Shown: positions 3,927-28,323 of the stretch, piece after piece | How the letters are laid out: each line of letters opens with the position of its first letter | Position numbering within the stretch: position 1 is the first letter of the stretch | Origin: Ignavibacteriota bacterium | GTDB lineage: Bacteria > Bacteroidota > Ignavibacteria > UBA10030 > CAVZMI01 | DNA: 34,106 nt | Direction of reading: 5' to 3' | Assembly (NCBI GenBank): GCA_963776275.1 | Contig: CAVZMI010000016.1 | Location: forward strand, 1-34,106 | The notes under the pieces: generated by a model | The model's input: only the letters and a program-made list of their open reading frames with translations | Told to the model about the DNA's origin: nothing | The model's database searches: none | Program-made: the position numbers and the translations under genes

Positions 3927-3977
3927 TAAAAAATATATTCCTTCACTGCTGTCTTTTTTTTTTTGGAGAAAATCTGC

Positions 3978-4515: not shown

Positions 4516-5147
4516 TTGTCCGAAGCATCCGAAGTATATGCCACCATCACACCTCCGGCAATTGTTGCCATTCCTCCAATCATGATCGTAAGAAGCTCGG
4601 AATTCGTCATTGTTGAAGTATACGGTCGTATAATCAGAGGGGCTTCGGTCTGGCCGATAAAAATATTTGCAGTATTCGACAGCGATTCAGCGCCGCTTGT
4701 TCCCATGGAATTCTTCGACATCACCCACGCCATCCCCTGTACAACCCGCTGTAGAATTCCAGATAATACAATACCGAAGTAGAGGCAGAGAGACGAAAAT
4801 AATTGTCGGCAGGACTTGAAAAGCGAAATATACACCGAGAGATTCCAAACCCGAGTTTACAGCCAGGCGTCCAAATACGAATTTAGCCCCTTCCATAGTG
4901 AAACCGAGTAGACTCACAACTGCACCACCCAGCCAGGCTATAATATCCTTCGGCCAGCCAGAGTGGTTTAAAAAAGCTACGAAGCTGCTCACTGTAGATA
5001 ATAAAAATAGCAAAAATGACCTGAATCAATATTCCCATTCCGACAAGCTGCCAATTGACCTTCCGTTTGTTGTTCGGAGAAGAGAAATGCTATTCCGAGA
5101 ATAACACACATGCCAATCAGGCCGCGAATGAGGGAGATGAAATCCAT
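4510..5147 (-). pseudogene. nupC: NupC/CNT family Na+/H+-nucleoside cotransporter, 5' part only, truncated at the fold-back apex
   Basis: CNT motifs FAFQVLPTIIF, GAESLSNTANIFIGQTEAPLIIRPY and GGMATIAGGV across frames; lies downstream of tdk. Confidence 0.85.
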
Positions 5148-5195
5148 GAGATTTTCTCCGAAAAAAAAGACAGCAGTGAAGGAATATATTTTTTA

Positions 5196-5772
5196 TTATT
5201 CTTTTGGGGGATCAAAAACATTTCCGGCATCGTGCTTCATACAGATCGGCGGCACCCACGGCAATCCGTTCGATCGATGTCCGGCTCTTTCGCTGTGTTC
5301 TATCAGCCGGGTTTCCACAGACGACACAGATTGCAAGCGTTTTTGTAATGTACTCGGCGACGGCAAGAAGTTGCGGCATTGGCTCGAATGGCCGGCCACG
5401 AAAGTCTTGATCAAGTCCTACTACAATGACTCGCTTTCCCGCGTCGGCAAGTTCCTCGCATATCGAGACAAGATTTTCCTTGAAGAATTGCCCCTCATCG
5501 ATTCCGATCACTTGAGCGTCTGCGGCAAGTGCCGGGATTTCCGATGCATCGTCGACCAGCGTTGAGATGAATGATTGTTCACTGTGGGAAACGATATGAT
5601 CTTTGCTGAAGCGACTGTCAATTCGCGGTTTAAATATTATAACCTTCTGTCTGGCGATTTGAGCCCTCCGTATACGCCGGATCAATTCCTCTGTTTTCCC
5701 GCTGAACATACAACCACATATGATTTCAATCCATCCGATTTCTTTTGGTGAATTAGGACCGATCGTATCCAT
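5196..5772 (-). CDS. tdk: Thymidine kinase (TK1-like); apparent 1-nt indel near the 3' end
   Basis: P-loop [22 protein letters not shown] and zinc CxxC pairs (CVVC, CRKC); the native end FDPPKE* is seen in the mirror copy. Confidence 0.93.
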
Positions 5773-5857
5773 GAGCTTTAATTACGTTTGAGTTTTTTCG
5801 ATAAAAAACGGATGTAGCGCATGCATTATTCTGTTTATGTGCAGAAATGTGCTGAAA

Positions 5858-5886
5858 AATATATAAAAAAGGGGCGGGAAAAGCAA
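5858..5886 (-). promoter_or_regulatory. Predicted sigma70-like promoter for tdk-nupC
   Basis: TTGCTT-17 bp-TATATT on the minus strand. Confidence 0.5.
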
Positions 5887-5955
5887 TTATAAAAATATTG
5901 TGACTTGAGAATATGGTCGGGAATGGCTATATTTCTTATTAACGGTGGGAGAGCA

Positions 5956-6738
5956 ATGAACCTGAAAAGAAAGATTACCGGTTTTTTTACCTCGCGGATT
6001 GCAATAAAAGTCTATATCGCTTTTGGCATCCTTATTCTTTCCTTTCTATTCCTCAATAATCTTCTCATGCCCTGGATAGTCAATCGTGGCGGTACGCTTG
6101 AAGTTCCCGATGTTGAAGGATTGACATTCGAAAATGCAAAGGAGAAGCTGGATTCATTGGGATTCGACACACGACAGGGTGACATACGTCCCGATCTACG
6201 ACGTGCGGCAGGACAGGTTATAGCACAAAATCCGCCGGCAGGATCATTCGTGAAATATCGAAGAAGGATATACCTTACCATCAGCGGAGGCGAACTCACG
6301 GTTTTCATACCAGATCTTAAGGGTCGTTCACTACGGGATGCAAAGTTTTCACTGACTCGTAACGGACTTAATCTTGGTGAAGTCGAATACCAGATTTCTC
6401 CTGGATTTCCAGAAAACACGGTCATGGCACAGTCAGTGCCCGCCAATTCGCGTATCAAAAAGGGGAGTTCAATCGGAATAACTATGAGTCTTGGAGATGG
6501 AACCGGCAAGGTCAGTGTCCCAGACCTTATAGGGAAATCTGTTCAGGAAGGACAAAGACTCCTGGCGCAAAAAGGACTTAAAGTAGGCAACATCACATAC
6601 CAAAATACTCCTGAGCTGGTTCCTAATACGATCCTGACACAATTTCCTCATCCTGGGGATCAGGTTGCAATGGGACAGGCGATTGATCTTTTTGTTGTTC
6701 AACCGGGTGCGAAGAAATTACCAGAAATCAAGGAATAG
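5956..6738 (+). CDS. Membrane-anchored protein with three PASTA domains
   Basis: N-terminal TM helix, then repeats VPDVEG, IPDLKG and VPDLIG, each with a Q.P..G motif. ATG 5956 follows GGGAGAG; PASTA-rpe adjacency. Confidence 0.88.
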   Translation: MNLKRKITGFFTSRIAIKVYIAFGILILSFLFLNNLLMPWIVNRGGTLEVPDVEGLTFENAKEKLDSLGFDTRQGDIRPDLRRAAGQVIAQNPPAGSFVKYRRRIYLTISGGELTVFIPDLKGRSLRDAKFSLTRNGLNLGEVEYQISPGFPENTVMAQSVPANSRIKKGSSIGITMSLGDGTGKVSVPDLIGKSVQEGQRLLAQKGLKVGNITYQNTPELVPNTILTQFPHPGDQVAMGQAIDLFVVQPGAKKLPEIKE

Positions 6739-6817
6739 CTGTGGTGCGGTTCTTAAATATGGTCGCTCAAAATATAATCTGTTCTAAAATTATATTATTT
6801 CGGAAGGGATGCTCCTC

Positions 6818-7473
6818 ATGCTTCGAATAGCCCCCTCGATTCTCTCAGCAAATTTTGCATGTCTTGAAAAGCAAATTCGACTAGCCGAGGCCGGGAAAGC
6901 CGATTGGATCCATTGTGACATCATGGATGGTCATTTCGTTCCGAATATCACAATTGGTCCGTTGGTCGTTGAAGCCTTAAAAAGGATAACAACGTTGCCT
7001 CTTGATGTTCACCTCATGATCCAGAAGCCCGATGATTTTCTTGAGCAGTTTATACATGCAGGAGCTAAAATTGTGACAGTCCATCAAGAAACCTGCATTC
7101 ATCTCCAACAAACGGTGAAGAGGATTAAGGAACTTGGAGCACAAGCCGGTGCTGCCATTGATCCCACAACGGATGTTTCGACACTCAAAGAGATTATAGA
7201 TGACTTGATATAGTGTTGATCATGTCGGTGAATCCGGGTTTTGGAGGCCAGAAATTTATTACACATTCGCTCCAGAAGATCGAACAGGCTGCGGAATTGA
7301 TAGCCGCGAGTAATTCAAAGGCTATTATCGAAGTGGACGGTGGTATTGATACGACGACGGCTGCAAACGTCGTGAAAGCAGGAGCGAGTGTGTTGGTAGT
7401 AGGTAATGCCATATTCTCGAAAAAAGATATTGCAGGTGCAGTTAAAGAGATCAGAAAAGCTGCCCAGGTATAG
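6818..7473 (+). CDS. rpe: Ribulose-phosphate 3-epimerase (apparent -1 indel at ~7205, probably a sequence error)
   Basis: Rpe motifs; adding one base restores EIIDDLDIVLIMSVNPGFGGQ. Confidence 0.92.
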
Positions 7474-7645
7474 CTGACAAACTATTCTTGTTCCAATTTT
7501 TCTTCTTCCAAGTGGTCCCTATTGTTAACCAATCGCTGTCCCTAACGTGTTCGAGCAAGCTCTTTTCCAACCCTTAAAAATGAAAGCAAAAGTGCAATAA
7601 TTCCTTAAAAATTATTAATAAATGGCATTTTTTTATTAATAATAC

Positions 7646-7675
7646 TTGACATTATGCAACTATTATTTATATTAT
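7646..7675 (+). promoter_or_regulatory. Predicted promoter for lrp-glnA in a very AT-rich region with TTATTAATAA palindromes
   Basis: TTGACA at 7646, then TATATT (16-bp spacer) or TATTAT (18-bp spacer). Confidence 0.55.
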
Positions 7676-7755
7676 AACGTTAATGTTATTGATATCCTTA
7701 ATAAATTAAGTTTAATAGTATTTATTATTAATAATAAAAGGAGAAGGAGTCGACA

Positions 7756-8244
7756 ATGATCCTCGATGAAATCGACCTAAAGATTCTTGAAATCCTTCAG
7801 AAAAACGGACGGACACGACGGAGCGATCTAGCTTCATTGGTCGGACTCTCGATCCCTGCGGCAAGTGAGAGGATGAGGAAATTGGAGGATGACGGTTACA
7901 TTATGGGATATTTTGCTCTTCTTGATCCACAAAAGCTCGGAAAAGGGCTTACTGCATTTGTCTTGGTAACGGTGGATTCGTCAAAACATTATCCGACTTT
8001 CATTGAACATGTGAAGCCCGTCGATGAAATCATGGAGTGCCATTCCATCACCGGCGAAGGAACTCATCTTATCAAAATTCGCTGCGAGGACACGCTGGCA
8101 CTGGAAAAACTCCTTGCAAGAATCCAGGTATGGCCTGGTGTAGTCAAGACGACAACAAATGTAGTTCTCTCGCCGATCAAGGAATCTTTGCATGTAAAAA
8201 TACCGAAGGTTCAGTTTGCCAAAGTTGAACATCAACAGCGATAG
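7756..8244 (+). CDS. Lrp/AsnC family transcriptional regulator
   Basis: LDEIDLKILEILQKNGR HTH start, RMRKLEDDGYI and ECHSITGE RAM-domain motif; SD AGGAG. Confidence 0.93.
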   Translation: MILDEIDLKILEILQKNGRTRRSDLASLVGLSIPAASERMRKLEDDGYIMGYFALLDPQKLGKGLTAFVLVTVDSSKHYPTFIEHVKPVDEIMECHSITGEGTHLIKIRCEDTLALEKLLARIQVWPGVVKTTTNVVLSPIKESLHVKIPKVQFAKVEHQQR

Positions 8245-8324
8245 AAAAAGAAAAGAATACTTACTCAAAATTAAAAAGGAAAAATTAAAAAGGAAAAAAT
8301 ATAAACAAAAAGTGAGGACAAATT

Positions 8325-9755
8325 ATGATGAAGAAAAACATTGGTGAAATCGAAAAAGTCATGAAGCTCGTGAAAGACGAAAATGTCAAGATGGTGGACT
8401 TTAAATTCATGGACTTCCCCGGATTATGGCAACACTTCTCTGTTCCAGTTGGCGAATTTACTGAGAATAGCTTCGAAGATGGCCATGGATTTGATGGATC
8501 GAGCATTCGTGGATGGAAAACGATTCACGAAAGCGACATGCTGATTATCCCGGATCCGGAAACAGCCGTTATCGACCCATTCTCGACGTTCAAGACAATG
8601 AGCATCATATGCGATGTGTACGAACCACTCACAAAAGAAAAATATGGACGTTGTCCGCGTAATATTGCCCAGAAAGCAGAGGCATATCTGAAATCCACCG
8701 GTGTCGCTGATACGGCTTATTATGGACCGGAAGCAGAATTTTTTATTCTCGACGATGTTCGTTTCGACACTAACGAACACTCAAGTTATTACTATGTTGA
8801 TTCGAACGAGGGCCGATGGAACAGTGGACGCGAAGAAAAACCAAATCTTGGATATAAACCTCGCTACAAAGAGGGATATTTCCCCGTCCCGCCGGCCGAT
8901 GCAACCCTCGAGGTACGCGATGCAATGGTTAAGAACCTCTTGTCAGTCGGATTACATATTGAGGCTTCACATCATGAAGTCGCAACGGCGGGTCAGGCTG
9001 AAATTGATCTCCGATATGCACCGCTTGTGAGGATGGCCGATAATCTGATGCTCTTCAAATATATCGTCAAAAATACCGCAAGAGCAATGAATAAGACTGT
9101 GACATTCATGCCGAAACCGATCTTTGCAGATAACGGATCAGGAATGCACGTCCACCAGAGTCTTTGGAAAAATGGAAAACCGCTGTTTTATGGAAATGGA
9201 TATGCAAACCTAAGTGAAATGGCGTTGAATTATATAGGTGGACTGCTCAGACATGCTCCGGCGATTTGCGCTATTGCCAGTCCTACAACAAACTCATACA
9301 AGCGTCTTGTTCCGGGTTTTGAGGCTCCCGTGAATCTCGCATACTCACAGCGAAACCGGAGTGCGGCTATTCGTATTCCGATGTATTCGGCCAATCCAAA
9401 AACGAAACGCATCGAATTCCGCTGTCCTGATCCTGCATGTAACCCATATCTTGCCTTTGCAGCGATGCTCATGGCCGGTCTTGATGGGATCATCAATAAA
9501 ATCGATCCGGGTGATCCGCTTGACAAGGATATCTATGACATGTCGCCCGAAGAATTGAAGGATGTTCCTTCAGCTCCCGGATCACTTCCCGAAGCTTTAA
9601 TGGCTCTCGAGCGTGATCATGATTTCTTGTTGCGTGGGGATGTGTTTACCGAGGATGTGATAAATGCATGGATTGACTATAAAATGGAAAAAGAAGTAAA
9701 GCCGATGGCTCTGCGTCCGCACCCTTATGAGTTTGGCCTTTATTTCGACTGTTAA
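8325..9755 (+). CDS. glnA: Glutamine synthetase type I (beta)
   Basis: [65 protein letters not shown]; adenylylation-loop-like DIYDMSPEE. Confidence 0.98.
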
Positions 9756-16839: not shown

Positions 16840-17298
16840 ATGGGACGAAAAGATATCCATAAAATCCTATCCGAACAGGATATGCAGCAAGTTGCGGAAG
16901 TCATTCGTGAAATAGAAAAAACGACAGAAGGAGAGATTCGGGTCGCTCTTCGCGAAAAACGTCATTGGGGGGAGGGAAAACTATCACTCCACCAGCTTGC
17001 ACTGAAAGAATTCCATCGGCTTGGCGTGCATAAAACAGAAAAGCATATCGGCGTCCTGATTTTTCTCCTGATATCTGAACGGAAGTTCCATATCATAGCA
17101 GACGAGGGAATTCACGCGCAGGTTGAAGATGGGACTTGGGATGTACTTGCAGAGCAAATGAGCAGGCATTTTCGCGAAGGGAAGTTTTACGATGGGATTT
17201 GCGCAACGGCTCATGGAGTAGGCGATATTCTTGTGAAACATTTCCCGGCAAAAGCTGGTAATATTGATGAACTACCAGACAATGTCAGCGTATCATGA
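16840..17298 (+). CDS. Short TPM-domain protein (LemA-cluster partner)
   Basis: IEKTTEGEIRV, GVLIFLLISERKFHIIADEGI, HFP...DELPD. Confidence 0.88.
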   Translation: MGRKDIHKILSEQDMQQVAEVIREIEKTTEGEIRVALREKRHWGEGKLSLHQLALKEFHRLGVHKTEKHIGVLIFLLISERKFHIIADEGIHAQVEDGTWDVLAEQMSRHFREGKFYDGICATAHGVGDILVKHFPAKAGNIDELPDNVSVS

Positions 17299-17370: not shown

Positions 17371-17399
17371 TTGATAATCACCCCTTTTTTTCGTACTTT
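17371..17399 (+). promoter_or_regulatory. Predicted sigma70-like promoter for the 17566-26993 gene run
   Basis: TTGATA-17 bp-TACTTT; predicted start ~17405-17406. Confidence 0.5.
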
Positions 17400-17405
17400 T
17401 ATCAA

Positions 17406-17520
17406 GTGTCTCGATTCAAAAATAACTTTAATAGGTTATAGCTAATTCGATTGCCATTTCCGGCAATCTAAAGTTGAACGGCGGCTTTCGGTCATTAAAG
17501 TTATTTTTGGTACTCGATAT
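17406..17520 (+). repeat. 115-bp nested hairpin element (REP/MITE-like or structured leader RNA)
   Basis: GTGTCTCGATT + perfect 16-bp arms CAAAAATAACTTTAAT (17417-17432) / ATTAAAGTTATTTTTG (17494-17509) + inner GATTGCC/GGCAATC hairpin (17449-17468) + GTACTCGATAT. Confidence 0.8.
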
Positions 17521-17565
17521 CAATTTAAATTTGGTCGGTATATCCTTCAATGGTTTGGAGTATCA

Positions 17566-18208
17566 GTGCGTGCATTGATGATCGTCTCATTCTTTTTTTT
17601 GTGCGTGGGAATGATACATACGGGATCAGGACATGCTCAGTCTCCTTCGCAATTACGACCGACCAACGTCGAACAACTACAGAAAATCGTCCGCTCTACA
17701 GTAGAGAAAGTTATTCAGGCAGAAGCATTTCAGCCTGGTCAGCGTATTCGGGTCAGGAACGTAAAAGATGAAAATAGCTGGCTCGTTAATCAGAGTACTT
17801 TCGATGTTTTATTTGCGCACGGTATAAAGGCGGTGGTCGCAGAAGCAGGGGATTCGGCGAATGCCGATGGAAATCTTGAAATTTTCCCGGTATCCCTCGG
17901 TGTTCGATATTCGCCGGTATTTCGCGATGGTCTCTTCAGTGAAGCACGGAACCGGACGAACCGTCGAGGGAAAATTCTCAGTCAGTGTTATCTGGAAGAA
18001 TGGATCGGTGGGTCTCGCAAAAGACTATACTGAAACTATCACGGATACAATCGCTGTCAGCGATCTTCCATCAATCGAGCATCCAACGTTACGGGCTGCA
18101 CGGGGTGAGCCACCTGCACAGGGTTTTTTTGATTCGCTGCTCGAACCGTTCGTCATTCTCGGCACACTCGCAATTGCCGTGTATCTTCTGTTCACAGTAC
18201 GAAGTTGA
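17566..18208 (+). CDS. Hypothetical exported protein with C-terminal membrane anchor; +1 frameshift at ~17950
   Basis: Signal-peptide-like N-terminus in ORF 17566-18033. C-terminal FFDSLLEPFVILGTLAIAVYLLFTVRS is in ORF 17861-18208. The span is 643 nt, one more than 214 codons. Confidence 0.65.
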
Positions 18209-19252
18209 ATGATGCGCGTACTCAGGACAATCCTGTTGCTCTCGATGGTGTTTGCGGCATCATCATACTGCCGGAGCGAGGAAGCGAATGACAGCTCGAG
18301 CAAATATGTGTCAATGTTGACATTCGGAGATGTTAATCTCGGGCGGCATGTCGGGAAAATGTTGCTACAGGGCGATACGCTTTATCCGTTTCGCAAGATC
18401 AGGCAGATCTTTACTACAACGGATATCGTATTTATCAATCTTGAAAGTCAGCTTTCAGACCAACAGGGAGAGACGCAGAATCCGAAAAATAATTTGATTT
18501 TTACAGGTCCGCCGCAGGGCGGTGCATCGTTAGCGCAGGCGGGAATCAACATTGTTTCAACGGCCAACAACCATGCATACGATTACGGATTCCAAGCCTT
18601 GAAAGAAACAATAGCAAATCTCGATGCGTCAAGAATATGGCATGTGGGGACGGCCATTGATTCAAGCCGTCGATACCGTCCGCTTGTAAGGCAGATTTCC
18701 GGGATTTCATTCGCTTTTTTTGCGGTCACAGAACCGATGAATTTCTCCTGTTGCGAATGGAAACCGTATATTGCTCTGGCCGATAGTGGAAAGCTTTTTC
18801 CGGAAATTCGAGCGATTCGTGACTCCGTTAACGTCGTAATTGTCAGTTACCACGGTGATGAAGAATACAAGGACAATCCGACAACCCGGCAAAAAAGATT
18901 CTTCCATCAGCTTGTTGAGGCAGGGGTCAATATCGTCTTGGGGCATCATAGCCATGTCCTGCAAGGAGTAGAAGTATATAAAGGGGGATGGTGTGTTTAT
19001 TCGCTGGGAAATTTTGTGTTCTCTCAGCCGAAGCGGAAGTGGACGCGGCTGAGTGCGGGTATTCGTTGGGTGTTTGAAAAGTATGAAGGTAAGGTAAGCA
19101 TCCGTTCGGTCACAATAATTCCGATCATGGCGGGAGTTCAACCTTCAGAATGTACCGATGCACGCGAACATAAGGAAATTCTTGATCGTGTCCATAGATT
19201 ATCAAATATCAAATTTCCGTGGTCGTTCAGTGATTCTTTACACATTGATTAA
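18209..19252 (+). CDS. CapA/PGA_cap family metallophosphatase-fold protein
   Basis: FGDVNLGR, INLES, STANNHAYDYG, VSYHG, GHHSHVLQ, YSLGNFVF. Confidence 0.9.
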   Translation: MMRVLRTILLLSMVFAASSYCRSEEANDSSSKYVSMLTFGDVNLGRHVGKMLLQGDTLYPFRKIRQIFTTTDIVFINLESQLSDQQGETQNPKNNLIFTGPPQGGASLAQAGINIVSTANNHAYDYGFQALKETIANLDASRIWHVGTAIDSSRRYRPLVRQISGISFAFFAVTEPMNFSCCEWKPYIALADSGKLFPEIRAIRDSVNVVIVSYHGDEEYKDNPTTRQKRFFHQLVEAGVNIVLGHHSHVLQGVEVYKGGWCVYSLGNFVFSQPKRKWTRLSAGIRWVFEKYEGKVSIRSVTIIPIMAGVQPSECTDAREHKEILDRVHRLSNIKFPWSFSDSLHID

Positions 19253-19262
19253 AAGGAGATCG

Positions 19263-20051
19263 ATGCGATATTTATTGCTGGCAGCATGCTGTTTTCTTTT
19301 CCTCATGGTAAATGGATGTGGGAGCGGTAAAGACTCGACTGCTCTCACGCCGGATGAGCGTTGGGAGCGAGCTAAACAGGCTTTCGAGAACGAGGATTAT
19401 CTGGATGCAATAGAAGATTTAAAAATCATCACGCTTCAATTCCAGGGAAGCGGCTATGGAGATTCGGCCCAATTTTATCTGGCAAAATGTTATTATAAAC
19501 GGAAAGAATATATCCTGGCTCAATACGAATTTGAAAATTTTATACGCACCCGTACCAGCAGCAAATTGCTTCCAAGCGCACGCTATCAACTGGGGATATG
19601 TTTCTACAGGTTATCGTCACAATCATCGCTTGATCAGCAGAATACGCGCAAGGCAATCGATGCATTCCAGTCGTTTATCGAATATAGTCCTGCAGATTCG
19701 CTTGTTCCTGATGTCGAAGCAAAAATCCGGGAATTGAACAACAAGCTTGCAGAACGAGAATATAAAATCGCCGAGCTCTATATGCGGATGCAATATTATC
19801 GTGCGGCGGTCATTTATTATGATGCGGTGCTTGAAAAATTCCATGATTCTGATCTGGCGGATGACGCACAGTTCGGCAAAGCGCGCGCGATGTTTATGAG
19901 AAAAAAGTATCCGGAAGCACACGATGAGATAGCGAGATTCTTCGAGCGATATCCCTCGAGCGACCGGCGTAGTGAAGGAGATGAGTTACGAATGGAAATT
20001 AATGCAAAGCTCAAGGGGCTGACCGACAAGGAGAAGACTCAGAAACCATAG
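19263..20051 (+). CDS. bamD: Outer membrane protein assembly lipoprotein BamD
   Basis: SD AAGGAG, lipobox VNGC, TPR helices, LDQQNTRKAIDAFQSFIEYSP, KLAEREYKIAELY. Confidence 0.9.
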   Translation: MRYLLLAACCFLFLMVNGCGSGKDSTALTPDERWERAKQAFENEDYLDAIEDLKIITLQFQGSGYGDSAQFYLAKCYYKRKEYILAQYEFENFIRTRTSSKLLPSARYQLGICFYRLSSQSSLDQQNTRKAIDAFQSFIEYSPADSLVPDVEAKIRELNNKLAEREYKIAELYMRMQYYRAAVIYYDAVLEKFHDSDLADDAQFGKARAMFMRKKYPEAHDEIARFFERYPSSDRRSEGDELRMEINAKLKGLTDKEKTQKP

Positions 20052-20065
20052 GCATTGAAGGGATC

Positions 20066-20545
20066 ATGAACGACTTCCCGAGATATGTGAAAAATTCGAT
20101 CGTTGAAATGACAGAGTACGTCTTCCCCAACGATACAAATCAAATGGGAAATCTGTACGGCGGACGATTGATGCACTGGCTGGATATTTGTGCCGCAATT
20201 TCGGCATCACGTCACAGCAATCGAGTATGTGTTACAGCATCGGTTGACGAGATCAACTTCATTCATCCGATTCATGTGGGTGAAGTTGTGATCCTCCGTG
20301 CGGAAGTGAATCGTGTTTTTCATACATCTATGGAAGTGGGCGTCAAAGTGTTTTCGCAAAATCTCCTCACTGGATCTCTCGCCCATACCAATACGGCATA
20401 TTTCACGTTTGTGAGTATTGATGAGAACGGGCATCCGGTCGAGGTTCCGCAAATTATCCCGGAATCCGAAGAGGAAAGACGCCGATACAATCAAGCCCTC
20501 AAACGAAGGGAGATCCGACTTCAACATAGGCAGAAACGTGGATGA
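20066..20545 (+). CDS. Acyl-CoA thioesterase (hotdog fold, YciA-like)
   Basis: VFPNDTNQMGNLYGGRLMHWLD, VTASVD, TSMEVGVKV, AYFTFVSID. Confidence 0.93.
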   Translation: MNDFPRYVKNSIVEMTEYVFPNDTNQMGNLYGGRLMHWLDICAAISASRHSNRVCVTASVDEINFIHPIHVGEVVILRAEVNRVFHTSMEVGVKVFSQNLLTGSLAHTNTAYFTFVSIDENGHPVEVPQIIPESEEERRRYNQALKRREIRLQHRQKRG

Positions 20546-20579
20546 TTCTGATCATTGCCGGTTTCGTTCTCTACTGGAC

Positions 20580-22742
20580 ATGCGAGTCCTTTTTTTGATC
20601 ACGGTAATTTTTCATATCTCAATCGCTTTTTCTCAACGTCAAACGGCGTCGTTTGCATTGTATTTCGAAATACCCACACACGCAAGACCAGTGTATACCA
20701 TGCTGGCTGATATCAACGCGGACAGTGTGAATGAAATTGTAACGCTCTCGCGCAATCCATCCTCACTTACAGTTTTTCGAATTCAACCCAGCGGAATATT
20801 CGAAACCCGTCAGGAAATTGATTTTACTGACTCGTGCGATATCGGTGCGTCCGGTTTTTTAAATGCTGATCAATATGCTGATGTCGTCGTTTTATTCCGG
20901 CAGGCACATCTTGTCCGATTCTATTTCGGCCAGGAAAACGGGACACTACGGGTTGGCGGACAGTTCTATCTTGACGGCATCTACGATGAGATCACTATTG
21001 CAGATATAACGCAGGACGGCCGTCCTGATATTATCCTGTACGGGAAAAAATCTCTCGGTATCACCGTTCTTCCCGGAAATGGTGATGGAACGTTCCGATT
21101 GCCGCAGACGATTCTTAAAGATATCCCGGTAGGGAAGACTGTCGTCAAATCGCTTAACAGCGACGGCATTCCTGATCTTGTGACCCTGGATTGGGTGACC
21201 AACACGATAAATATTTACTACGGGGATGGTATCGGTGGATATTCAGAAGAAACATCATTCCAGCTGAGCGATGAGATTGATGATCTTGCTGCGGTTGATC
21301 TTGATGGAAATAAAACAATCGACCTTGCCGTCGTATCATCAAAATCAAAATCGCTTCACACTTATTTCGGTACCGGAAGTGGAGAATTCCTAAAGGCACA
21401 GATCATTCGGCTTGAATTCAGTCCTACCTCGCTCTTTGCGGCAGATTTGAATGGCGACAGAAAACAGGATATTATTGTTATTGACAGACAGAATGCATAT
21501 GCCGGAGTGTTTATTAATCAGGGGCGTGGATTTTTTGGCGAAGTGACGGTGTTCGCAACAGGAACTCAGCCGACATCATACGTTCTAGGTTCATTAACGC
21601 ATGACCGTTATCCCGACCTGATAATAAGTGAACGGCGCAGCCAGAAGCTCATTGTGTACTGGAATGAAGAAAAAAAGGAAGTGCAGGGGAGAGAATATGC
21701 ACTCGGCCGGCTTCCCAAAGGAATCACTGTCGGTGATTTCAATCAGGATGGATTACTTGATGTAGCTGTCGCCAACGAATCGTCATCGACTCTCTCAATC
21801 CTTTACGGTCGGCGCGATAAATGCCTCAGGGGACAGATTGCCGTCAAAACTGTTTCATCGCCCCAATATCTGAACTACGTTGGTTCACAAAACGCTCATG
21901 CGGCATTCATCGTTTCAACAAATTACGCCGAACAGATTTCGGTCTACAACGTCGACCTCCAGGGTATGACGGCAAATGTATACCAGATTCCCACAGGAGG
22001 AATCCCATCCTTTGTTTATGGTTGGATTACACGATCGGGATTGATAGACTTGCTGACTGTGAATTATTCGAATTTGATCCCTGTTTCTGTGTCATTTTTT
22101 GAACAGGTCCGAGAGACCCGGTTTTCCGAGAAAAATTATCAACCTGCTGCTCCAAATACAATGCTTGGAGCAACTATGAGCGATATCAATAACGACAACC
22201 ATTTTGACATCGTCTATGTAGTCAAGGATAAACGATTCTCACGTCCATATCTCGTGACATCCTTCAGCGACTCGCTGCTGGAGCTTCACGAACGGCGCGT
22301 ATCATTCTATTTTCCCGATACCAGCTATACGTCTGTCATCATATCCGCCGGGGATTTTAATAATGATGGAAAAAACGATCTCGTTTTTATCAGCGGTAAT
22401 AAGAGTTCATCGAAAATGTATATCGCACTTGGACGGGGTGATAGTACTTTTACATTGACAAGCCAGTCGTTTCCTCATACTCTTGTCTCATATTCTCAAA
22501 ATATAAAATTACGCGATGCCGATGGTGACAGAGTTCTTGATATTCTTCTTGTCAACGATCTGACAAAATCTCTACTCTTCTTTCGTGGAAAAGGTGATGG
22601 AACATTTTTTCCGCCACGAACCATTGCAGAGGCAGAAGAAATTGGCGACTTTGAAAGTGTCGACCTTTTTAAAAATGGCACACCGCAATTACTGATGACA
22701 AATCTACGACGAAATACACTCACTATTACTTCAACCGAATGA
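20580..22742 (+). CDS. Secreted FG-GAP/VCBS repeat beta-propeller protein (~720 aa)
   Basis: Signal peptide from ATG 20580; about 12 D-x-N-x-D-G-x-x-D-like motifs (ADITQDGRPD, ADLNGDRKQD, GDFNQDGLLD, GDFNNDGKND...) and G.GDGTF motifs. Confidence 0.85.
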   Translation: MRVLFLITVIFHISIAFSQRQTASFALYFEIPTHARPVYTMLADINADSVNEIVTLSRNPSSLTVFRIQPSGIFETRQEIDFTDSCDIGASGFLNADQYADVVVLFRQAHLVRFYFGQENGTLRVGGQFYLDGIYDEITIADITQDGRPDIILYGKKSLGITVLPGNGDGTFRLPQTILKDIPVGKTVVKSLNSDGIPDLVTLDWVTNTINIYYGDGIGGYSEETSFQLSDEIDDLAAVDLDGNKTIDLAVVSSKSKSLHTYFGTGSGEFLKAQIIRLEFSPTSLFAADLNGDRKQDIIVIDRQNAYAGVFINQGRGFFGEVTVFATGTQPTSYVLGSLTHDRYPDLIISERRSQKLIVYWNEEKKEVQGREYALGRLPKGITVGDFNQDGLLDVAVANESSSTLSILYGRRDKCLRGQIAVKTVSSPQYLNYVGSQNAHAAFIVSTNYAEQISVYNVDLQGMTANVYQIPTGGIPSFVYGWITRSGLIDLLTVNYSNLIPVSVSFFEQVRETRFSEKNYQPAAPNTMLGATMSDINNDNHFDIVYVVKDKRFSRPYLVTSFSDSLLELHERRVSFYFPDTSYTSVIISAGDFNNDGKNDLVFISGNKSSSKMYIALGRGDSTFTLTSQSFPHTLVSYSQNIKLRDADGDRVLDILLVNDLTKSLLFFRGKGDGTFFPPRTIAEAEEIGDFESVDLFKNGTPQLLMTNLRRNTLTITSTE

Positions 22743-24418
22743 AACGCTTTTCATTTATACTTTTGTGCGGCCTAATCCCCATCGCCCTGAAAGGGGAAGT
22801 ACAAGATACGCGGCGACCGCTTCTTCAACAGATGCAGGAGCATTTTGCACTCCGAGAGGGAAGGACACTACCTCCACAGCACCCTACCAAATGTTCATTC
22901 AGCCTTGTTGCCAGGATTCGTACACTGGGCCGCAAGTTGACAGATGAAGAAAAACAAATGCTTCATCTTCTACAGACACGACCGACATGCCAGACGTTGA
23001 TTCTTAGCGCAAATGGACACTTCCGCATCCATTTTGACACGACAGGGACAAATGCGGGAGCGCTTTTTTATCAGGATAGTGTGCAGATTCCCAACTCTGC
23101 AAAGGAATATGCAGACTCCGTCGCGGAAATATTTGAAACTGTATGGGAAAAAGAGATCGCTGAAATGGGATATCCACCCACGCCATCGGATGACGGAATC
23201 GGCGGAGATGACGCCTATGATATCTATATAAAAGAATATGGTGGTATGGCATACGGTGAGACATACCCTGATTCAGTATTAAATCCCACAGATCCGACTC
23301 AAATCTCATCATCATTCATCATGATCGACAATGACTTTTATCGTTATTACAGTAAAGGTCTCAATGGAGCCAGAGTCACTGCAGCCCACGAATTTTTTCA
23401 TGCAATACAGATCGGCAACTATCGACTCTGGCTCGAAGATGCGAGTCCTTTTTTCTATGAGATCAGTTCGACATGGATGGAAGATGAGGTTTTTCCCGCT
23501 GTGAAGGACTATCTTCAATATGTCAGGTTCGCTTTTTCAATGACCGATATCCCTCTCAATGAAGCCAATGGTCTGGTTGAATATGGGAGGGCGATATTTG
23601 CAAAATATTTAGAACAAAAATTCGGACGTTCTGTCATCCGTGAAATTTGGAACGCGATACACAGTGTCCCGAGTCTCCAGGCAATTATCCTAACTCTCCA
23701 AAATCATCAAACCTCACTTGAGAGTGAATATCCAGAATTTGCTTTTTGGCATTATTATACCGGTCCCAAGGCCGATTTAACACAGTTTTTTCCCGATGGA
23801 TATCTCTATCCGGAAATTAAAATCTACGATCATATCGAGTTTATTCCCCCGACAAGTCAGAGTAATTATGAGCTAAGGAATCTGGCTTTCAAGTTTTTTC
23901 AGGTAGCCAAAAATGATACTAAAGATACGGCAACTCTTATAGCGACAAATGTGAATATTGTCTCAGCGTTGAATAATGCAACTGATGAGTATCCCTTTAG
24001 CTACCTGATTCAGAGTAACGGCGGAGACGAAACCTTTACACGACTGTCGAATGGTTTGTGGATAAAGCTGCAGGCCAACGATCCGCAAAACTGGAAAAGC
24101 ATTGCCTTTATTAATCCGAGCATCATCGCGAGTGATGATCCACCGTATCCGAATCCTTTTATCGCCGATGGGATGCGGCAGATCGTTTTTCCGATATGGA
24201 TCCAGACGGCTACGGATGCAGAGCTCGCCGTTTATTCATCTGATCTCAGGGAAATTTATTATGGACGAAAAGAGGCCAAACCGAAATTAATGAAAAATTT
24301 GATTTATTGGGATGGTGTCATGAATAACGGATTGCTGGCTCCAAGCGGAGTGTATTATTACGTCATAACTGTGAAGGGTGAAACCAGGCATGGTAAGATT
24401 GCAATTCTTCAAAAGTAA
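22739..24418 (+). CDS. Secreted HEXXH zinc metalloprotease (MXAN_6640-like) with C-terminal T9SS/FlgD-Ig-like domain
   Basis: HFRIHF, IDNDF, VTAAHEFFHAIQ, E..STWMED; C-terminal PYPNPF...WDG...G.LAPSGVYYY...GKIAIL. Confidence 0.8.
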   Translation: MKRFSFILLCGLIPIALKGEVQDTRRPLLQQMQEHFALREGRTLPPQHPTKCSFSLVARIRTLGRKLTDEEKQMLHLLQTRPTCQTLILSANGHFRIHFDTTGTNAGALFYQDSVQIPNSAKEYADSVAEIFETVWEKEIAEMGYPPTPSDDGIGGDDAYDIYIKEYGGMAYGETYPDSVLNPTDPTQISSSFIMIDNDFYRYYSKGLNGARVTAAHEFFHAIQIGNYRLWLEDASPFFYEISSTWMEDEVFPAVKDYLQYVRFAFSMTDIPLNEANGLVEYGRAIFAKYLEQKFGRSVIREIWNAIHSVPSLQAIILTLQNHQTSLESEYPEFAFWHYYTGPKADLTQFFPDGYLYPEIKIYDHIEFIPPTSQSNYELRNLAFKFFQVAKNDTKDTATLIATNVNIVSALNNATDEYPFSYLIQSNGGDETFTRLSNGLWIKLQANDPQNWKSIAFINPSIIASDDPPYPNPFIADGMRQIVFPIWIQTATDAELAVYSSDLREIYYGRKEAKPKLMKNLIYWDGVMNNGLLAPSGVYYYVITVKGETRHGKIAILQK

Positions 24419-25054
24419 ATGAGACAGCATATTCTTCATGTTGAGTCGCTCCGGAAAGATTTCAACCGGAGAACCGTATTCTCGGATATTTCATTCGAGA
24501 TCGGGAGCGGTCAGTCGATTGCGATCACCGGCAAGAATGGGAGCGGAAAATCGACTCTGGCGAAGATTCTCAGCGGCGTCCTGAGCGCAACCTCGGGAAA
24601 AGTACTTCTGAAATGCAGTGGAAGCGAAATTTCGGCCGACGAACGTCATGAACATATCGGCTTTGTCTCTCCCTACCTTCAACTGTACGACGAGTTTTCT
24701 GCACTCGAAAATCTCCGGCTTTGCGCATCATTGCGCGGTCTTCAATATGAGGACTTCCAAGGCGATGCACTTCTCGATCTTGTTGATTTATCGTCGCGCA
24801 AAAATGATCCTGTTCGTATCTATTCGTCGGGAATGAAACAGAGATTAAAATATGCATTTGCACTTCTTCACCAGCCGCAGATTCTGATCCTGGATGAGCC
24901 GACGGCGAACCTCGATTCCGAAGGTATCGATATGGCCCGATTGGTAATGAAAACACAATGTGAACAAGGCATTCTCATCATAGCAACAAATGACAAGGAC
25001 GACCTCCGCCATGTTGATACGGCTATATCGGTCGAGAAGGGAGGAGGCCGATGA
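24419..25054 (+). CDS. ccmA: Heme exporter ATP-binding protein CcmA
   Basis: GKNGSGKST, YSSGMKQR, ILDEP; precedes ccmBCDE. Confidence 0.85.
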   Translation: MRQHILHVESLRKDFNRRTVFSDISFEIGSGQSIAITGKNGSGKSTLAKILSGVLSATSGKVLLKCSGSEISADERHEHIGFVSPYLQLYDEFSALENLRLCASLRGLQYEDFQGDALLDLVDLSSRKNDPVRIYSSGMKQRLKYAFALLHQPQILILDEPTANLDSEGIDMARLVMKTQCEQGILIIATNDKDDLRHVDTAISVEKGGGR

Positions 25055-25725
25055 AGCAATGGATCCGTGCAACACTTGGTGTATTCCTGAAAGATATGGA
25101 GTCGGAACTTCGTACGCGATACGCACTCAATGCTCTGATAATGTTTGTGATAATAACGCTCTCGATGATTCTTTTTTCATTTGGAAATGAAATCGCTCCG
25201 CATTTTGTTCTCTCGGGGATACTATGGATTATCATATTCTTTGCAGCGATGTCGGGACTGTCCCGCACATTCGTGAGTGAAGAAGAACGGGGAACCGTCT
25301 TAACATTACAACTTCTAACGCATTCGAGCTCGGTGTTTTTCGGAAAACTCCTTCTTAACATCTTACTGTCATGTGTGATCAATACGCTAACAGTTGTTCT
25401 GTACTTGCTTTTAATCAGTAATTTCACAATTCAAACATGGTCTATCTTTTTTCTCATACTCTTATTGGGGAGCCTCGGATTAGCTTCCGGGGCGACGATT
25501 GTCGCAGCAATCGTCGCTAAAGCGAACACAAAGGGAACCTTGTATCCGGTACTCGCGTTTCCAATACTGCTCCCGCTGCTAATTGCAGTCATCAGCGGAA
25601 CACAGATGGCCGTCGAAGGTGCATCGCTAGCATCTGCAGGCGGTCTCCTGCAATTTCTATTTTCCTATTTGATTGTTTTTACGACATTACCGTACCTGCT
25701 ATTTGACTATATCTGGAAAGAATAG
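25051..25725 (+). CDS. ccmB: Heme exporter permease CcmB
   Basis: KDMESELRTRY, FVSEEERGT, LYPVLAFPILLPLL; six TM-like segments. Confidence 0.9.
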   Translation: MKQWIRATLGVFLKDMESELRTRYALNALIMFVIITLSMILFSFGNEIAPHFVLSGILWIIIFFAAMSGLSRTFVSEEERGTVLTLQLLTHSSSVFFGKLLLNILLSCVINTLTVVLYLLLISNFTIQTWSIFFLILLLGSLGLASGATIVAAIVAKANTKGTLYPVLAFPILLPLLIAVISGTQMAVEGASLASAGGLLQFLFSYLIVFTTLPYLLFDYIWKE

Positions 25726-25756
25726 AATATTGATAGTTAATTGGAAGGATTGAGCC

Positions 25757-26440
25757 GTGTTCTGGAAATTTGCTCTTGGAATCTGGATGACCGTCGTTAT
25801 TATTCTCGCTTTCACATTGCCTGCGGCGCCGAATCCGCAAGCATGGTACGAGATACCAAGCATTCCGGGTCTTGAAGAAAAAGGGCGCATTATTTTCTTT
25901 CATGTCCCCACGGCATGGGTCACTGTTGTAGCATTTCTGGTCTCGATGTCCTATGGCATACAATATCTCAGGAAAAATCGCATCGACGACGATATCCGGT
26001 CGGTGTCGGCTGCAGGACTTGGATTTTTGTTTTGTATCCTGGCAACAATCATAGGATCGATATGGGCAAAATTCAACTGGGGGTCTTTTTGGAACTGGGA
26101 TCCGCGCGAAACTTCGATCTTCATTCTATTGTTAATTTATGGAGCATATTTTGCACTACGCTCTGCAATCGAAGGTGATGAAAAGCGTGCACGGCTCTCG
26201 GCTGTCTATTCCATTATTGCGTTTGTAACGGTTCCGTTTTTTATTTTTATTTTACCCAGAATTGTCGAAAGTCTCCACCCCGATCCCATAATTAACCCAC
26301 AGGGGCAGCTTCACATGAATCTCACGATGTTTATTATTTTTTTGAGCTCTCTTGCAGGATTTACGGCATTATTTTTCTGGATGTGGAATCTTGCCGTCAG
26401 GATCGGGAAACTTGAATTCATCCGCCATTCCGAAAATTAA
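25757..26440 (+). CDS. ccmC: Heme delivery protein CcmC
   Basis: FFHVP, WWD motif GSIWAKFNWGSFWNWDPRET, SLHP; GTG start. Confidence 0.92.
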   Translation: MFWKFALGIWMTVVIILAFTLPAAPNPQAWYEIPSIPGLEEKGRIIFFHVPTAWVTVVAFLVSMSYGIQYLRKNRIDDDIRSVSAAGLGFLFCILATIIGSIWAKFNWGSFWNWDPRETSIFILLLIYGAYFALRSAIEGDEKRARLSAVYSIIAFVTVPFFIFILPRIVESLHPDPIINPQGQLHMNLTMFIIFLSSLAGFTALFFWMWNLAVRIGKLEFIRHSEN

Positions 26441-26454
26441 TAAGGAGCATACAC

Positions 26455-26598
26455 GTGTCGTTTCTTAGTGGTTTTTTCAACCAGCATTCTCTATATATTG
26501 TGCTGACAATCGTCCTCGTCATCTGGACCGGTATCTTTTTTTATCTTTATCGTCTCGAAAAAAGGATTAGCAGGCTGGAAGAGGCAATGAGGAAATGA
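26455..26598 (+). CDS. ccmD: CcmD family small membrane protein (47 aa, absent from the ORF track)
   Basis: SD AAGGAG, GTG start, MSFLSGFFNQHSLYIVLTIVLVIWTGIFFYLYRLEKRISRLEEAMRK*; stop overlaps the ccmE ATG. Confidence 0.85.
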   Translation: MSFLSGFFNQHSLYIVLTIVLVIWTGIFFYLYRLEKRISRLEEAMRK

Positions 26599-26993
26599 AT
26601 GTGAAGCTTAAATTTATTGCTGCTGCCATTGTTGTCGTCGTTTTTGTTATTTTTGGCGGGAAGGCTTTCTTTGAGAGTACAATGGAGTATTCCAACTTTG
26701 CGCATGCGAAGGAGACAGGTAAAAAAGTACCGGTGAAAGGCCGGTGGGTTCAGGAAAAAGGATCATACTACGATCCGAAGTATAATCAGTTTACCTTCTA
26801 TATGCGGGACACTACCCAGATGGAGGTAAAAGTCGTTCTTGACGGACCTAAGCCGAATAATTTTGAACTGGCATCGCACGTCGTGGCAACAGGACGTTTT
26901 GAAAACGATTATTTCCATGCGTCACAGGTTCTGACGAAATGTCCGTCGAAATATGAAGGTGTGCTGGAACAGAAAAATAAAACATCTCCATAG
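26595..26993 (+). CDS. ccmE: Heme chaperone CcmE, CxxxY type
   Basis: N-terminal TM, PNNF, VVATG, FHASQVLTKCPSKY. Confidence 0.92.
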   Translation: MNVKLKFIAAAIVVVVFVIFGGKAFFESTMEYSNFAHAKETGKKVPVKGRWVQEKGSYYDPKYNQFTFYMRDTTQMEVKVVLDGPKPNNFELASHVVATGRFENDYFHASQVLTKCPSKYEGVLEQKNKTSP

Positions 26994-27017
26994 ATTTAAA
27001 GTTCTTTCGGCTTCCGT

Positions 27018-27737
27018 TTAAATTGTAATAGAGAAAATATCCTTTATTCCAATCGCCTCGTATGAATAGAATGGCTCGCCATATCGGACACCAATCTGAT
27101 TCCCCCAATAACGTAATCGAGTCTCAATATGCTCGAGAAAATCAGGCCTGCTTAAAAGAGTTTCTCGTTCACGGCTGTTTGGATCGTAGAATTGTGAACG
27201 AAAGGCTCTGACTGCATTCATGCGGATTTCAAATTGTTCAGAGATATCGACGATGAAAGAGGGCGGAAATCCGTATCTCTGCATAAAGTGAAAAATTTTC
27301 TTCGGTCTGAATGGCTCTTGAAGTTTTCCGTTGTCGTATGTGTGCATTTTCTCGAGTCCGGCATAATACCAGGCTTCTTTCGCGAGTAAATGGGCATGTT
27401 CATGATCGGGGTGTCGATCAAGATGGTGAGGAATGATAAGTATCTCGGGTCGATATCTTCTGATCACTGTCATGGTTTTCAGACGATTTTCCAAGGTCAT
27501 TTCAATATTTCCATCGAGGAGTTCGAGATTCTCGCGAAGTTCCACGCCGAGTATTTTTGCAGCGCTCATTGCCTCTTTATGACGAATTTCTCGCGATCCA
27601 CGGGTACCGAGTTCTCCCTGCGTCAGATCAAGAATGCCTACTTTTTTTCCCTGTTGAACGAGCCTTGCAATTGTACCACCGCAGGCAAGTTCGATATCAT
27701 CGGGATGAGCGCCGACAGCCAAGACATCAAGCTTCAT
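27018..27737 (-). CDS. bshB1: Bacillithiol biosynthesis deacetylase BshB1 (PIG-L family)
   Basis: MKLDVLAVGAHPDDIELACGG, DLTQGELGTRG, DRHPDH, SQFYDPNS; true start inferred at 27737. Confidence 0.9.
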   Translation of the reverse strand: MKLDVLAVGAHPDDIELACGGTIARLVQQGKKVGILDLTQGELGTRGSREIRHKEAMSAAKILGVELRENLELLDGNIEMTLENRLKTMTVIRRYRPEILIIPHHLDRHPDHEHAHLLAKEAWYYAGLEKMHTYDNGKLQEPFRPKKIFHFMQRYGFPPSFIVDISEQFEIRMNAVRAFRSQFYDPNSRERETLLSRPDFLEHIETRLRYWGNQIGVRYGEPFYSYEAIGIKDIFSITI

Positions 27738-27763
27738 GGATTTCTTCCTAAGTTGTTGAAAAG

Positions 27764-27792
27764 AATATACGATATGAAGCGTAGAGAAACAA
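27764..27792 (-). promoter_or_regulatory. Predicted bshB1 promoter, back-to-back with the tmRNA promoter
   Basis: TTGTTT-17 bp-TATATT on the minus strand. Confidence 0.45.
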
Positions 27793-27798
27793 GATTTT

Positions 27799-27827
27799 TT
27801 GCCTTTAAGAGCGAAATATTGTATATT
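27799..27827 (+). promoter_or_regulatory. Predicted tmRNA promoter
   Basis: TTGCCT-17 bp-TATATT; predicted start ~27834-27835. Confidence 0.55.
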
Positions 27828-27834
27828 CACCTCA

Positions 27835-27952
27835 GTGTCTCGATTGTACTCGACACAGGTGTCTCGATTGTACTCGACACAGGTGTCTCGATTGTACTCG
27901 ACACAGGTGTCTCGATTGTACTCGACACAGGTGTCTCGATTGTACTCGACAC
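27835..27952 (+). repeat. Five perfect tandem copies of a 24-bp palindromic unit GTGTCTCGATTGTACTCGACACAG (last copy 22 bp)
   Basis: Units start at 27835, 27859, 27883, 27907 and 27931 with no spacers. Each unit can fold GTG-(TC bulge)-TCGA / TCGA-CAC. Confidence 0.97.
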
Positions 27953-27961
27953 TTAGCATCC

Positions 27962-28319
27962 GGGGGTGATTTGGATTCGACGGGGAATAGGATGCTCGAA
28001 ACTGCATACCGTGCTCTCCGAGTTGCACGTAAATAAAGCGGAAAAAACTTAAGTGCTAACTACAATTACGCACTGGCTGCTTAATTAGCAACCCGTTCTT
28101 TTACGATCTCACCTGATGGATTGTAGAAGGGCGTCGACTTTAGTCAGGCTCGCGGCTCTATGATCGGGCGGAGTACGCTAAACTCAAAGTCCCCATCTAG
28201 CTTCTGGAGTATCATGTCCGCCTCGAGTATCCAGCGGCGAAATAATAAAAGGCAGACTATGTATGGAGACGTTTTGAGGGTCTTATCTTCGGACGCGGGT
28301 TCAACTCCCGCCACCTCCA
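27962..28319 (+). ncRNA. ssrA: tmRNA; tag peptide (A)ANYNYALAA* at 28055-28084
   Basis: 5' GGGGGTGATTTGGATTCGAC; 3' T-arm GCGGGTTCAACTCCCGC then CACCTCCA, giving an acceptor stem with G3.U; TAAGT precedes the resume codon GCT. Confidence 0.96.
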
Positions 28320-28323
28320 CAAT

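Follow-up and report, generated by a model that had tools for sequence, protein, structure and literature searches.

Within a draft genome of an Ignavibacteriota bacterium, a stretch of 34,106 nucleotides (contig CAVZMI010000016.1, here C16; "the window" denotes the whole of this stretch) carries the same palindromic motif directly past the -10 boxes of two unrelated promoters, one of which is that of the transfer-messenger RNA (tmRNA) gene. The question is then whether the motif belongs to transcription starts or came to lie at these two by other means. Followed through the source genome and its relatives, the motif is very probably the end pair of a non-autonomous mobile element, a miniature inverted-repeat transposable element (MITE) of the IS630/Tc1-mariner type. 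The source genome (G000) is a 3.70-Mb draft of 38 contigs with 45% G+C and 96% completeness. It was compared chiefly with the only other species of its genus (G001, the sister species), with the next genus (G002), and with a related genus (G036).

A repeat family with common ends and variable content

As a preliminary description of the window had noted, the unit in the tmRNA leader recurs at 17406-17416 (GTGTCTCGATT) and 17510-17520 (GTACTCGATAT) with 93 bases between, and this can be read directly in the sequence. The 11-mer GTGTCTCGATT occurs 19 times in G000, as against 0 occurrences of the reversed control; one of 15 places with the 11-mer (C7:71672) is an unrelated coding match. Altogether the family comprises 24 loci on 14 contigs of G000, with forms of 22-325 bp that have the same ends, which bears out the proposal of a fixed base with variable cargo. 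A search with nhmmer and a profile of the 115-bp form returned nine copies with a length of exactly 115 bp (E 1e-21 to 1e-31) and four longer forms of 215-325 bp in which both ends are shared. Smaller forms are units of 22-23 bp (C12:56851, C12:59454, C15:102222, and C28:47434) and of 44 bp (C38:59372 and C25:93191), the 44-bp form resembling a GC-rich-type hairpin (described below) nested in the loop of a 23-bp unit. At C3:72455, a 271-bp form holds other content between the family ends. Tandem arrays other than that in the tmRNA leader are found at C6:162231 (six units, period 25) and C25:17247 (three to four units). The right-hand boundaries of C23:416499 and C6:162231 were set by hand.

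The terminal inverted repeats are imperfect (GTGTCTCGAYT... / ...CTCGACAC) and are followed inward by a perfect arm of 12-16 bp; the elements have no coding capacity. Compared with the right end in reverse complement, the left end is identical at 25 of 32 positions. All nine 115-bp copies have the long hairpin fold, in which the long arms inside the ends pair over 16 bp, and across 15 copies 93.9% of cells are paired over 21 pairs. Two arm pairs differ on both sides between subtypes, being G-C or T-A in 8 and 7 of the 15 copies. In the outer 5-bp stem, by comparison, departures are one-sided or unpaired only, and none of the 15 copies has a compensatory change there.

The four long forms (C20:7447-7679, C21:181925-182139, C3:40743-40986, and C25:17147-17471 of G000) contain a second, nested inverted-repeat element, sometimes together with one to four 23-bp units. 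The ends of the nested element, CCGTTCCAA, are like those of IS630-family copies in three further relatives; the inverted ends ..CCGTTCCAATTATA.. / ..TAGTTGGAACGG.. resemble IS630-family repeats in G465, G037, and G428. By these likenesses, it looks like a second IS630-type MITE family of the genus.

In the genomes searched, the main family does not occur outside one genus. Its minimal pattern was found in 2 of 41 genomes (G000 and 40 relatives), namely G000 and G001 only. A 20-mer of the left arm, searched in one genome per bacterial or archaeal species, matched six stretches, of which four are orthologous copies in a single Bacteroidota metagenome-assembled genome and two are single matches without a right end, at about chance level. 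The same 20-mer had 0 matches in viral contigs. A comparison with Rfam, which the preliminary description had suggested, gave only the tmRNA at the gathering score in the window and no family at E up to 1 in four loci of the element.

Empty sites and a 2-bp target duplication

The comparison of G000 with G001 took in 22 of the 24 loci (C12:56851 and C12:59454 were left out). Copies are present in both genomes at 16 of the 22 loci and are often altered: one site has 23 bp in one genome and 44 bp in the other, another has a long form opposite a six-unit array, and a third has kept an 8-base remnant. At one locus, the flanks are 4.7 kb apart in G001. The element is absent from G001 at 5 of the 22 loci, with the flanks adjoining, and three of these are clean orthologous empty sites of the kind that had been proposed as a check. 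At C21:181925, the empty site of G001 reads ..cat-TA-gtacc and the filled site of G000 ..cac-TA-(element)-TA-gtacc. The empty site of C20:7679 reads c-TA-tcgta, and since the target is therefore CTAT, the duplication is of 2 bp, not 4; a 4-bp duplication of CTAG was rejected on this ground. The filled site of C7:45183 is flanked by CA on both sides and its empty counterpart has TA; this fits a true duplication of a polymorphic target. The element has thus moved since the split of the genus' two species.

Flanking dinucleotides across 23 loci agree with this, TA being found on the left at 15, on the right at 14, and on both sides at 10, with TA at a frequency of 0.0655 in intergenic DNA (binomial P 2e-18). 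The target is often the TA of CTAG. Contig C17 of G000, in a diverged second copy of a region on C9, has one more empty site, likewise CTAG.

Two separate observations concern these sites. At C23:416499-416549, G001 (contig C3) retains only the last 8 bases of the element, with breakpoints in the direct CTCGAC repeats of the ends, which points to decay by deletion between those repeats. The C9 and C17 regions of G000 (C9:11341-15571 and C17:32176-36413) are several kb present twice, on different contigs and at ~83% identity; either the region is paralogous or a second related organism has contributed DNA to the bin, for which contamination is estimated at 5.3%.

Position relative to stop codons and genes

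At 9 of the 24 loci, the element overlaps the stop of an open frame (195-588 codons long), and that stop is spelled by the TA of the flank and the terminal G of the element (C on the other strand). Five further loci lie 3-23 nt past such a stop, so that 14 of 24 lie at a stop or within 23 nt after it. On crude gene calls, the share that lies at stops is 3.9% among usable TA sites and 8.7% among usable CTAG sites, and the excess is significant against both (P 1.6e-7 and 1.1e-4, respectively); CTAG is the rarest tetranucleotide of G000. By manual reading, 12 copies are in sense with the neighboring genes, 10 are antisense, and 2 are ambiguous. The copies are thus mostly 3' of genes, the placement that the preliminary description had set against a tie to transcription starts.

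Such a distribution would follow from the element's tips. With G as its first base and C as its last, an element that landed in the TA of a TAG or TAA codon would re-form the stop, and insertions of this kind would be harmless and so persist. The AT-rich DNA just past a -10 box would also offer TA targets; a hairpin there would only lengthen the 5' leader, and the insertion would leave promoter and gene intact.

Similarity of the ends to IS630-family elements

A gene with the DDE_3 domain (IS630) was found in 20 of 150 other genomes of the order. In G036, such a gene (69.6 bits) lies within a TA-flanked IS630-family element of 1165 bp, the repeats of which are identical to the left end of the family at 22 and 23 of 32 positions in an ungapped, tip-anchored comparison. 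Among the 48,686 32-mers of G000 that start with TAG, four reach 23 of 32, and all four are family ends. The similarity suggests that an IS630-family transposase supplied in trans, and not in the assemblies, would excise the element and paste it into TA.

Members of the IS630 family are described as inserting into TA with a 2-bp duplication and occasionally into other dinucleotides, with 34 of 39 products in TA and 2 in AA/TT (PMC2170065), and in TA insertion, 2-bp duplication, and rare non-TA targets the elements of G000 are alike. IS630 and ISY100 are autonomous elements of ~1.1 kb with a transposase gene of their own, whereas the elements of G000 measure 22-325 bp and have none. To go by the title of a reference, IS630 is said to prefer TA inside CTAG.

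Other candidate partners were rejected. Transposase candidates with DDE_Tnp_1_2 or DDE_Tnp_1 domains (IS4/IS5-type; on contigs C48 and C35 of G001 and C29 of G000) are without family ends. A four-copy 1.4-kb repeat of G000 (C5:65855-67260, C28:25132-26537, C28:60107-61503, and C35:1-1400; 99.9-100% identity) is an IS3-like element with a 346-aa transposase frame of the integrase-core type and has other ends. Pairs of family ends 400-4000 bp apart were chance pairs around housekeeping genes only. The preliminary description had called the motif similar to repetitive extragenic palindromes (REPs) and had seen no mobilizing gene for it in the window; none was found in the window or in the whole assembly. 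Y1_Tnp matches number 9 in G000 (~5 of full length), 8 in G001, and 9 in G002. The Y1/RAYT gene flanked by the motif that had been suggested as a partner is not among the nine places in G000, since none has family ends within 1.5 kb, and the IS200-like or RAYT-like Y1_Tnp gene at C27:40241-40585 is flanked by GC-rich short hairpins of its own, a different repeat family.

The two copies in the window

The features around the two copies are listed below. Promoters were scored out of 12 over the two hexamers, and a promoter-like site is one that scores 8 or more and ends 4-10 nt before the left end of a copy.

16840..17298, forward strand: upstream gene, TPM-domain protein (Pfam PF04536, E 5.1e-17)
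17371..17399, forward strand: promoter-like site TTGATA-17 nt-TACTTT (TTGATA 17371-17376, TACTTT 17394-17399; score 8/12)
17406..17520, forward strand: 115-bp repeat copy (nhmmer E 9.7e-26), with left end 17406-17416, long arms 17417-17432 / 17494-17509, and right end 17510-17520
17566..18208, forward strand: downstream gene, small membrane or secreted protein, two frames in G000, no Pfam match
27018..27737, reverse strand: divergent gene, PIG-L family deacetylase (Pfam PF02585, E 3.3e-28)
27799..27827, forward strand: tmRNA promoter TTGCCT-17 nt-TATATT (TTGCCT 27799-27804, TATATT 27822-27827; score 9/12)
27835..27952, forward strand: array of five perfect tandem 22-bp minimal units joined by AG
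27953..27961, forward strand: final 9 bases of the presumed leader (ttagcatcc), identical in G001
27962..28322, forward strand: tmRNA gene, tag peptide ANYNYALAA (ARAGORN; Rfam RF00023, 184.4 bits)

The first G of the 115-bp copy is the 7th base past TACTTT, and that of the array is the 8th past TATATT. The preliminary description had placed both 7-8 nt past a -10 box with a -35 box 17 nt upstream, which stands, and both promoters are conserved in relatives; TTGATA/TACTTT was not listed by the promoter scan, its second hexamer matching at only 3 of 6 positions. The homologous block of G002 has TTGAAA-17 nt-TATTTT with no element after it, and its spacer is ~130 nt without the element as against 279 nt in G000. 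As these -10 boxes are conserved in element-free relatives, both copies in the window are probably transcribed as leaders, being tolerated at these places, not targeted to them.

The 115-bp copy lies at the same site in G001, where 12 of its 115 bases differ, compared with 11 of 256 in the flanks. Its right end has decayed to GATAT in G000. Two C-to-T changes in this copy had been taken to preserve the base stem through G.U pairs; G001 shares only one of them and adds a C-to-T change in the left end, and the outer stem is without compensation, for which reasons the changes are ordinary decay and not selection. The downstream gene needs a frame change near 17990 in G000 and is a single open frame of ~215 aa in G002; the split is either a sequencing error or the mark of a pseudogene.

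At the tmRNA gene, the preliminary description was right that a unit is present in the leader but was silent on its occurring in five tandem copies. The unit GTGTCTCGATTGTACTCGACAC lies at 27835-27856, 27859-27880, 27883-27904, 27907-27928, and 27931-27952 and consists exactly of the first 11 and last 11 bases of the 115-bp form; Tandem Repeats Finder gives a period of 24 and 4.9 copies with 100% matches. The five-unit count is that of the assembly, and a short-read assembly may misjudge it. G000 and G001 have the same promoter (TTGCCT-17-TATATT), the array being placed between it and the tmRNA gene, with five units in G000, two in G001, and none in G002, and the spacer surrounding the array reads identically in the two species. 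The units are uniform within each species and one base apart between the two, which together with the counts of 5 and 2 fits slippage or unequal exchange.

Without the array, the distance from promoter to tmRNA gene would be 16 nt, and in relatives of the order TTGnnn-17-TAT(A/C)TT ends 7-13 nt before the mature tmRNA 5' end at 8 of 9 loci. The tmRNA gene is single-copy in G000 and in G001 (the sole match above the Rfam cut-off in each), and its expression must therefore go through the array in place. The 5' end of tmRNA is described as made by RNase P (PMC3968760), and the most likely route of expression is the old promoter giving a 127-nt leader that would be cut off by this enzyme. Of the 24 RNA runs listed, each of which accounted for <=0.14 of words, four were aligned and gave coverage on conserved parts of the tmRNA only.

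On the reading preferred here, then, both window copies would be old insertions, found also in the sister species but not in the next genus. The 22-bp form at the tmRNA locus, which consists of the tips only, would have been multiplied by replication slippage or unequal exchange to the five units found here and the two of G001. If the conserved promoter remains in use, the array would be transcribed within the leader and removed by RNase P at the mature 5' end.

A GC-rich hairpin family in other DNA

The minimal pattern was also found in at least 122 stretches of metagenome contigs. In 80 of these metagenome loci, 80 of 87 matches were of one 22-mer type with other loop bases, lying in GC-rich DNA (mean 65%). 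This 22-nt hairpin (metagenome loci L107-L186 and viral loci L229-L233) has the stem G-NNN-C, the inner bases TCGACT..GCTC, and the tail GAACGG; there are 151 hits in 85 loci (80 metagenome and 5 viral), GAACGG following in 120 of the 151, and the hairpins often form inverted pairs 6-26 nt apart. Among 56 further hairpins, for which the stem was not part of the search, 39 had fully paired 5-bp stems of nine sequences, compared with 12.6 after shuffling. A hairpin family with fixed inner bases and a covarying stem therefore exists. In Rfam, inverted pairs of this hairpin match MIR6143, a plant family, below the threshold (56-62 bits, E 1e-9 to 7e-11, with a gathering score of 75), and six 15-mers of the hairpin gave no match in the papers searched.

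Single copies of the GC-rich type occur in a few genomes of the order. In G178 (L255:280-301), a hairpin lies 15 nt before tRNA-Gln and is preceded by a copy of the first 13 bases of that tRNA; in G017 (L256:580-601, reverse strand), one lies 55 nt before tRNA-Arg and is preceded by a copy of its first 9 bases. The pattern is as if an element had landed in the tRNA gene and the 5' part had been duplicated. No tRNA or tmRNA gene was found within 1.5 kb of any of 60 metagenome loci that carry the GC-rich hairpin.

These hairpins could be taken to mean that the mobile unit is defined by the hairpin base only, that is, a 5-bp stem (G-NNN-C / G-NNN-C) with TCGAYT inside on the 5' side, CTC inside on the 3' side, and any loop content of 0 to ~300 bases. 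The 22-23-bp units would then be complete elements of a family spread across GC-rich bacteria of many habitats, with the leaders of RNase P substrates (tmRNA, and tRNA-Gln and tRNA-Arg in the two relatives) as favored landing places. If so, these units would be among the smallest mobile DNAs known, moved by an as yet undescribed enzyme. This extension is regarded as unlikely, if worth bearing in mind. The match in the hairpin stem is forced by the search pattern, and only ~11 inner bases are shared freely; the link between the GC-rich hairpins and the family of G000 may be chance, and the termini of the latter are already explained by their similarity to IS630 ends.

Weighing the explanations

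Most marks of a MITE are present, namely inverted repeats, a 2-bp TA duplication, small dispersed non-coding copies, and ends like those of an autonomous IS630 element. Several other observations weigh against this assignment. A matching transposase gene was not found in the same genome: the DDE_3 gene had 0 matches in the draft assemblies of G000, G001, and G002, and tblastn of the IS630 transposases of four relatives against G000 gave nothing (best E 0.24), so that the case for an IS630-family transposase acting in trans draws on the likeness of the ends only. An 11-bp tip is probably too short for binding by a Tc1/mariner-type transposase, and the 22-23-bp forms may be either self-moving or relics from which the hairpin was deleted. 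Two loci are unclean in the comparison with G001, C3:72455 having TA/CA flanks opposite a single CA and C6:49084 adjoining an end-like fragment common to both genomes. Neither copy in the window has a clean TA..TA, the flanks being AA/CA at 17406 and CA/TT at the array, and inside arrays the spacers are AG or AA, not TA. The RNA reads on the tmRNA are mostly 90-99% alike and so belong to other organisms, and 27560-27949 is without reads. As to the absent gene, insertion sequences may be unassembled in a draft of this completeness, and MITE status does not require a resident partner transposase.

The proposal that the family inserts at transcription starts, or is selected because it forms an RNA structure at the 5' terminus that serves stability, processing, or protein docking, takes its strength from the window, where both copies do follow -10 boxes conserved in element-free relatives, and from the similar hairpins 15 and 55 nt before tRNA genes in two relatives. 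Genome-wide, a suitably placed promoter-like site precedes 4 of 23 loci, compared with 6.1% of 5000 control TA sites (P 0.048), but once the two loci that prompted the idea are removed this falls to 2 of 21 (P 0.37), both in the last codons of genes. With more than half of the loci at or just after stops, in mixed orientation, a tie to transcription starts was not upheld. Selection on the RNA fares no better, as the base stem is without compensatory changes, nothing in Rfam matches, and the 17406 copy diverges faster than its flanks; neither do the GC-rich hairpins at 60 metagenome loci have tRNA or tmRNA genes as neighbors within 1.5 kb. This explanation is now most improbable. Scarcely credible is the thought that the five-unit array is a binding platform, an operator array or roadblock, through which a regulator or transposase controls tmRNA output. 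Five identical palindrome-like sites, spaced at 24 bp and lying between promoter and gene, with the array kept in two species, would suit it; the difference in unit number, five as against two, with one base distinguishing the units of the two species and uniformity within each, is the pattern of slippage, similar arrays lie in ordinary spacers, and no candidate binding protein is known.

Movement of a REP/REPIN-type repeat in single-stranded form by a RAYT (Y1) enzyme would leave a TA duplication that is only apparent, made of a fixed target dinucleotide and an end that itself reads TA. The Y1_Tnp genes of G000 would provide the enzyme, the minimal unit is an imperfect hairpin of 22-23 nt in tandem clusters, as described for REPs (PMC3116915), and GC-rich metagenome contigs commonly hold a hairpin that shares the inner bases and has covarying stems, in many cases as inverted pairs. 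Against this, no Y1 gene of G000 has family ends nearby and that at C27:40241 has different hairpins, the family ends match the IS630 repeat, and CA stands on both flanks at C7:45183 where the empty site is TA. Insertion by IS200/IS605-like chemistry is without target duplication, which the 2-bp duplication, CA..CA included, does not agree with. Nor was a Y1-like frame found within 1.5 kb of 80 metagenome loci, a weak point, RAYTs being single-copy genes. Movement by a RAYT is thus improbable, and an IS630-type MITE is the preferred explanation.

Comparison with known elements

By description, a close counterpart is RUP (repeat unit of pneumococcus), a MITE of 107 bp in Streptococcus pneumoniae, presumably mobilized by IS630-Spn1, which is likewise of ~100 bp and non-coding, with short inverted repeats, TA termini and target, a long hairpin, and IS630-like ends (PMC2229807). 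It belongs to another phylum, and the assembly of G000, for its part, is without an IS630 gene. Beyond what is described for RUP, the family of G000 has 22-23-bp forms of the tips only in perfect tandem arrays and 9 of 24 loci on stop codons. The Correia or NEMIS elements of Neisseria are MITEs of ~105-155 bp, many of them 5' of genes, and resemble the family of G000 in their inverted repeats, target duplication, TA termini, size classes by internal segment, and mobility seen in filled and empty sites; they are described as carrying promoters and an integration host factor site (PMC3184786, PMC2229807), whereas the family of G000 is limited to one Bacteroidota genus. Membership in Correia, RUP, or ERIC is unlikely by host range (Neisseria, pneumococcus, and enterobacteria, respectively).

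REPs and REPINs are similarly short extragenic hairpin repeats with inverted doublets and tandem clusters at mostly non-coding sites (PMC3116915). They differ in that REPINs adjoin their RAYT gene, whereas the family of G000 has no motif-flanked Y1 gene and does have a 2-bp target duplication. Judging by its known features, the family appears comparable to RUP and Correia elements, a new family of a known kind of MITE. Finally, the small dispersed repeats of Nostoc (Elhai et al. 2008) are reportedly 21-27 bp long, palindrome-like, and nested, and by that account resemble the 22-23-bp units and the 44-bp nested form; the units of G000 share their ends with a 115-bp MITE.

Other features of the window

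The first 9.1 kb of the contig are filled by a 4.5-kb inverted repeat (1-4515 and 4607-9119; 99.2% identity, 91-bp center), which, lying at a contig end, could be either a true palindromic duplication or an artifact of fold-back assembly. Mirrored tandem repeats lie within it at 814-852 and 8267-8298.

Implications

What looked like a promoter-linked RNA motif is thus very likely a recently active MITE family of an ordinary kind, and the regulatory idea is not borne out genome-wide. It would represent an IS630-type MITE in an uncultured Bacteroidota genus, the transposase of which is absent from the assemblies. The family illustrates how an element starting with G can occupy the TA of a stop codon and leave the protein unchanged. 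At the tmRNA gene, a leader longer by 118 bases of perfect hairpin repeats would be a natural test of the leader tolerance of RNase P, and the copy number of the array could serve as a strain marker.

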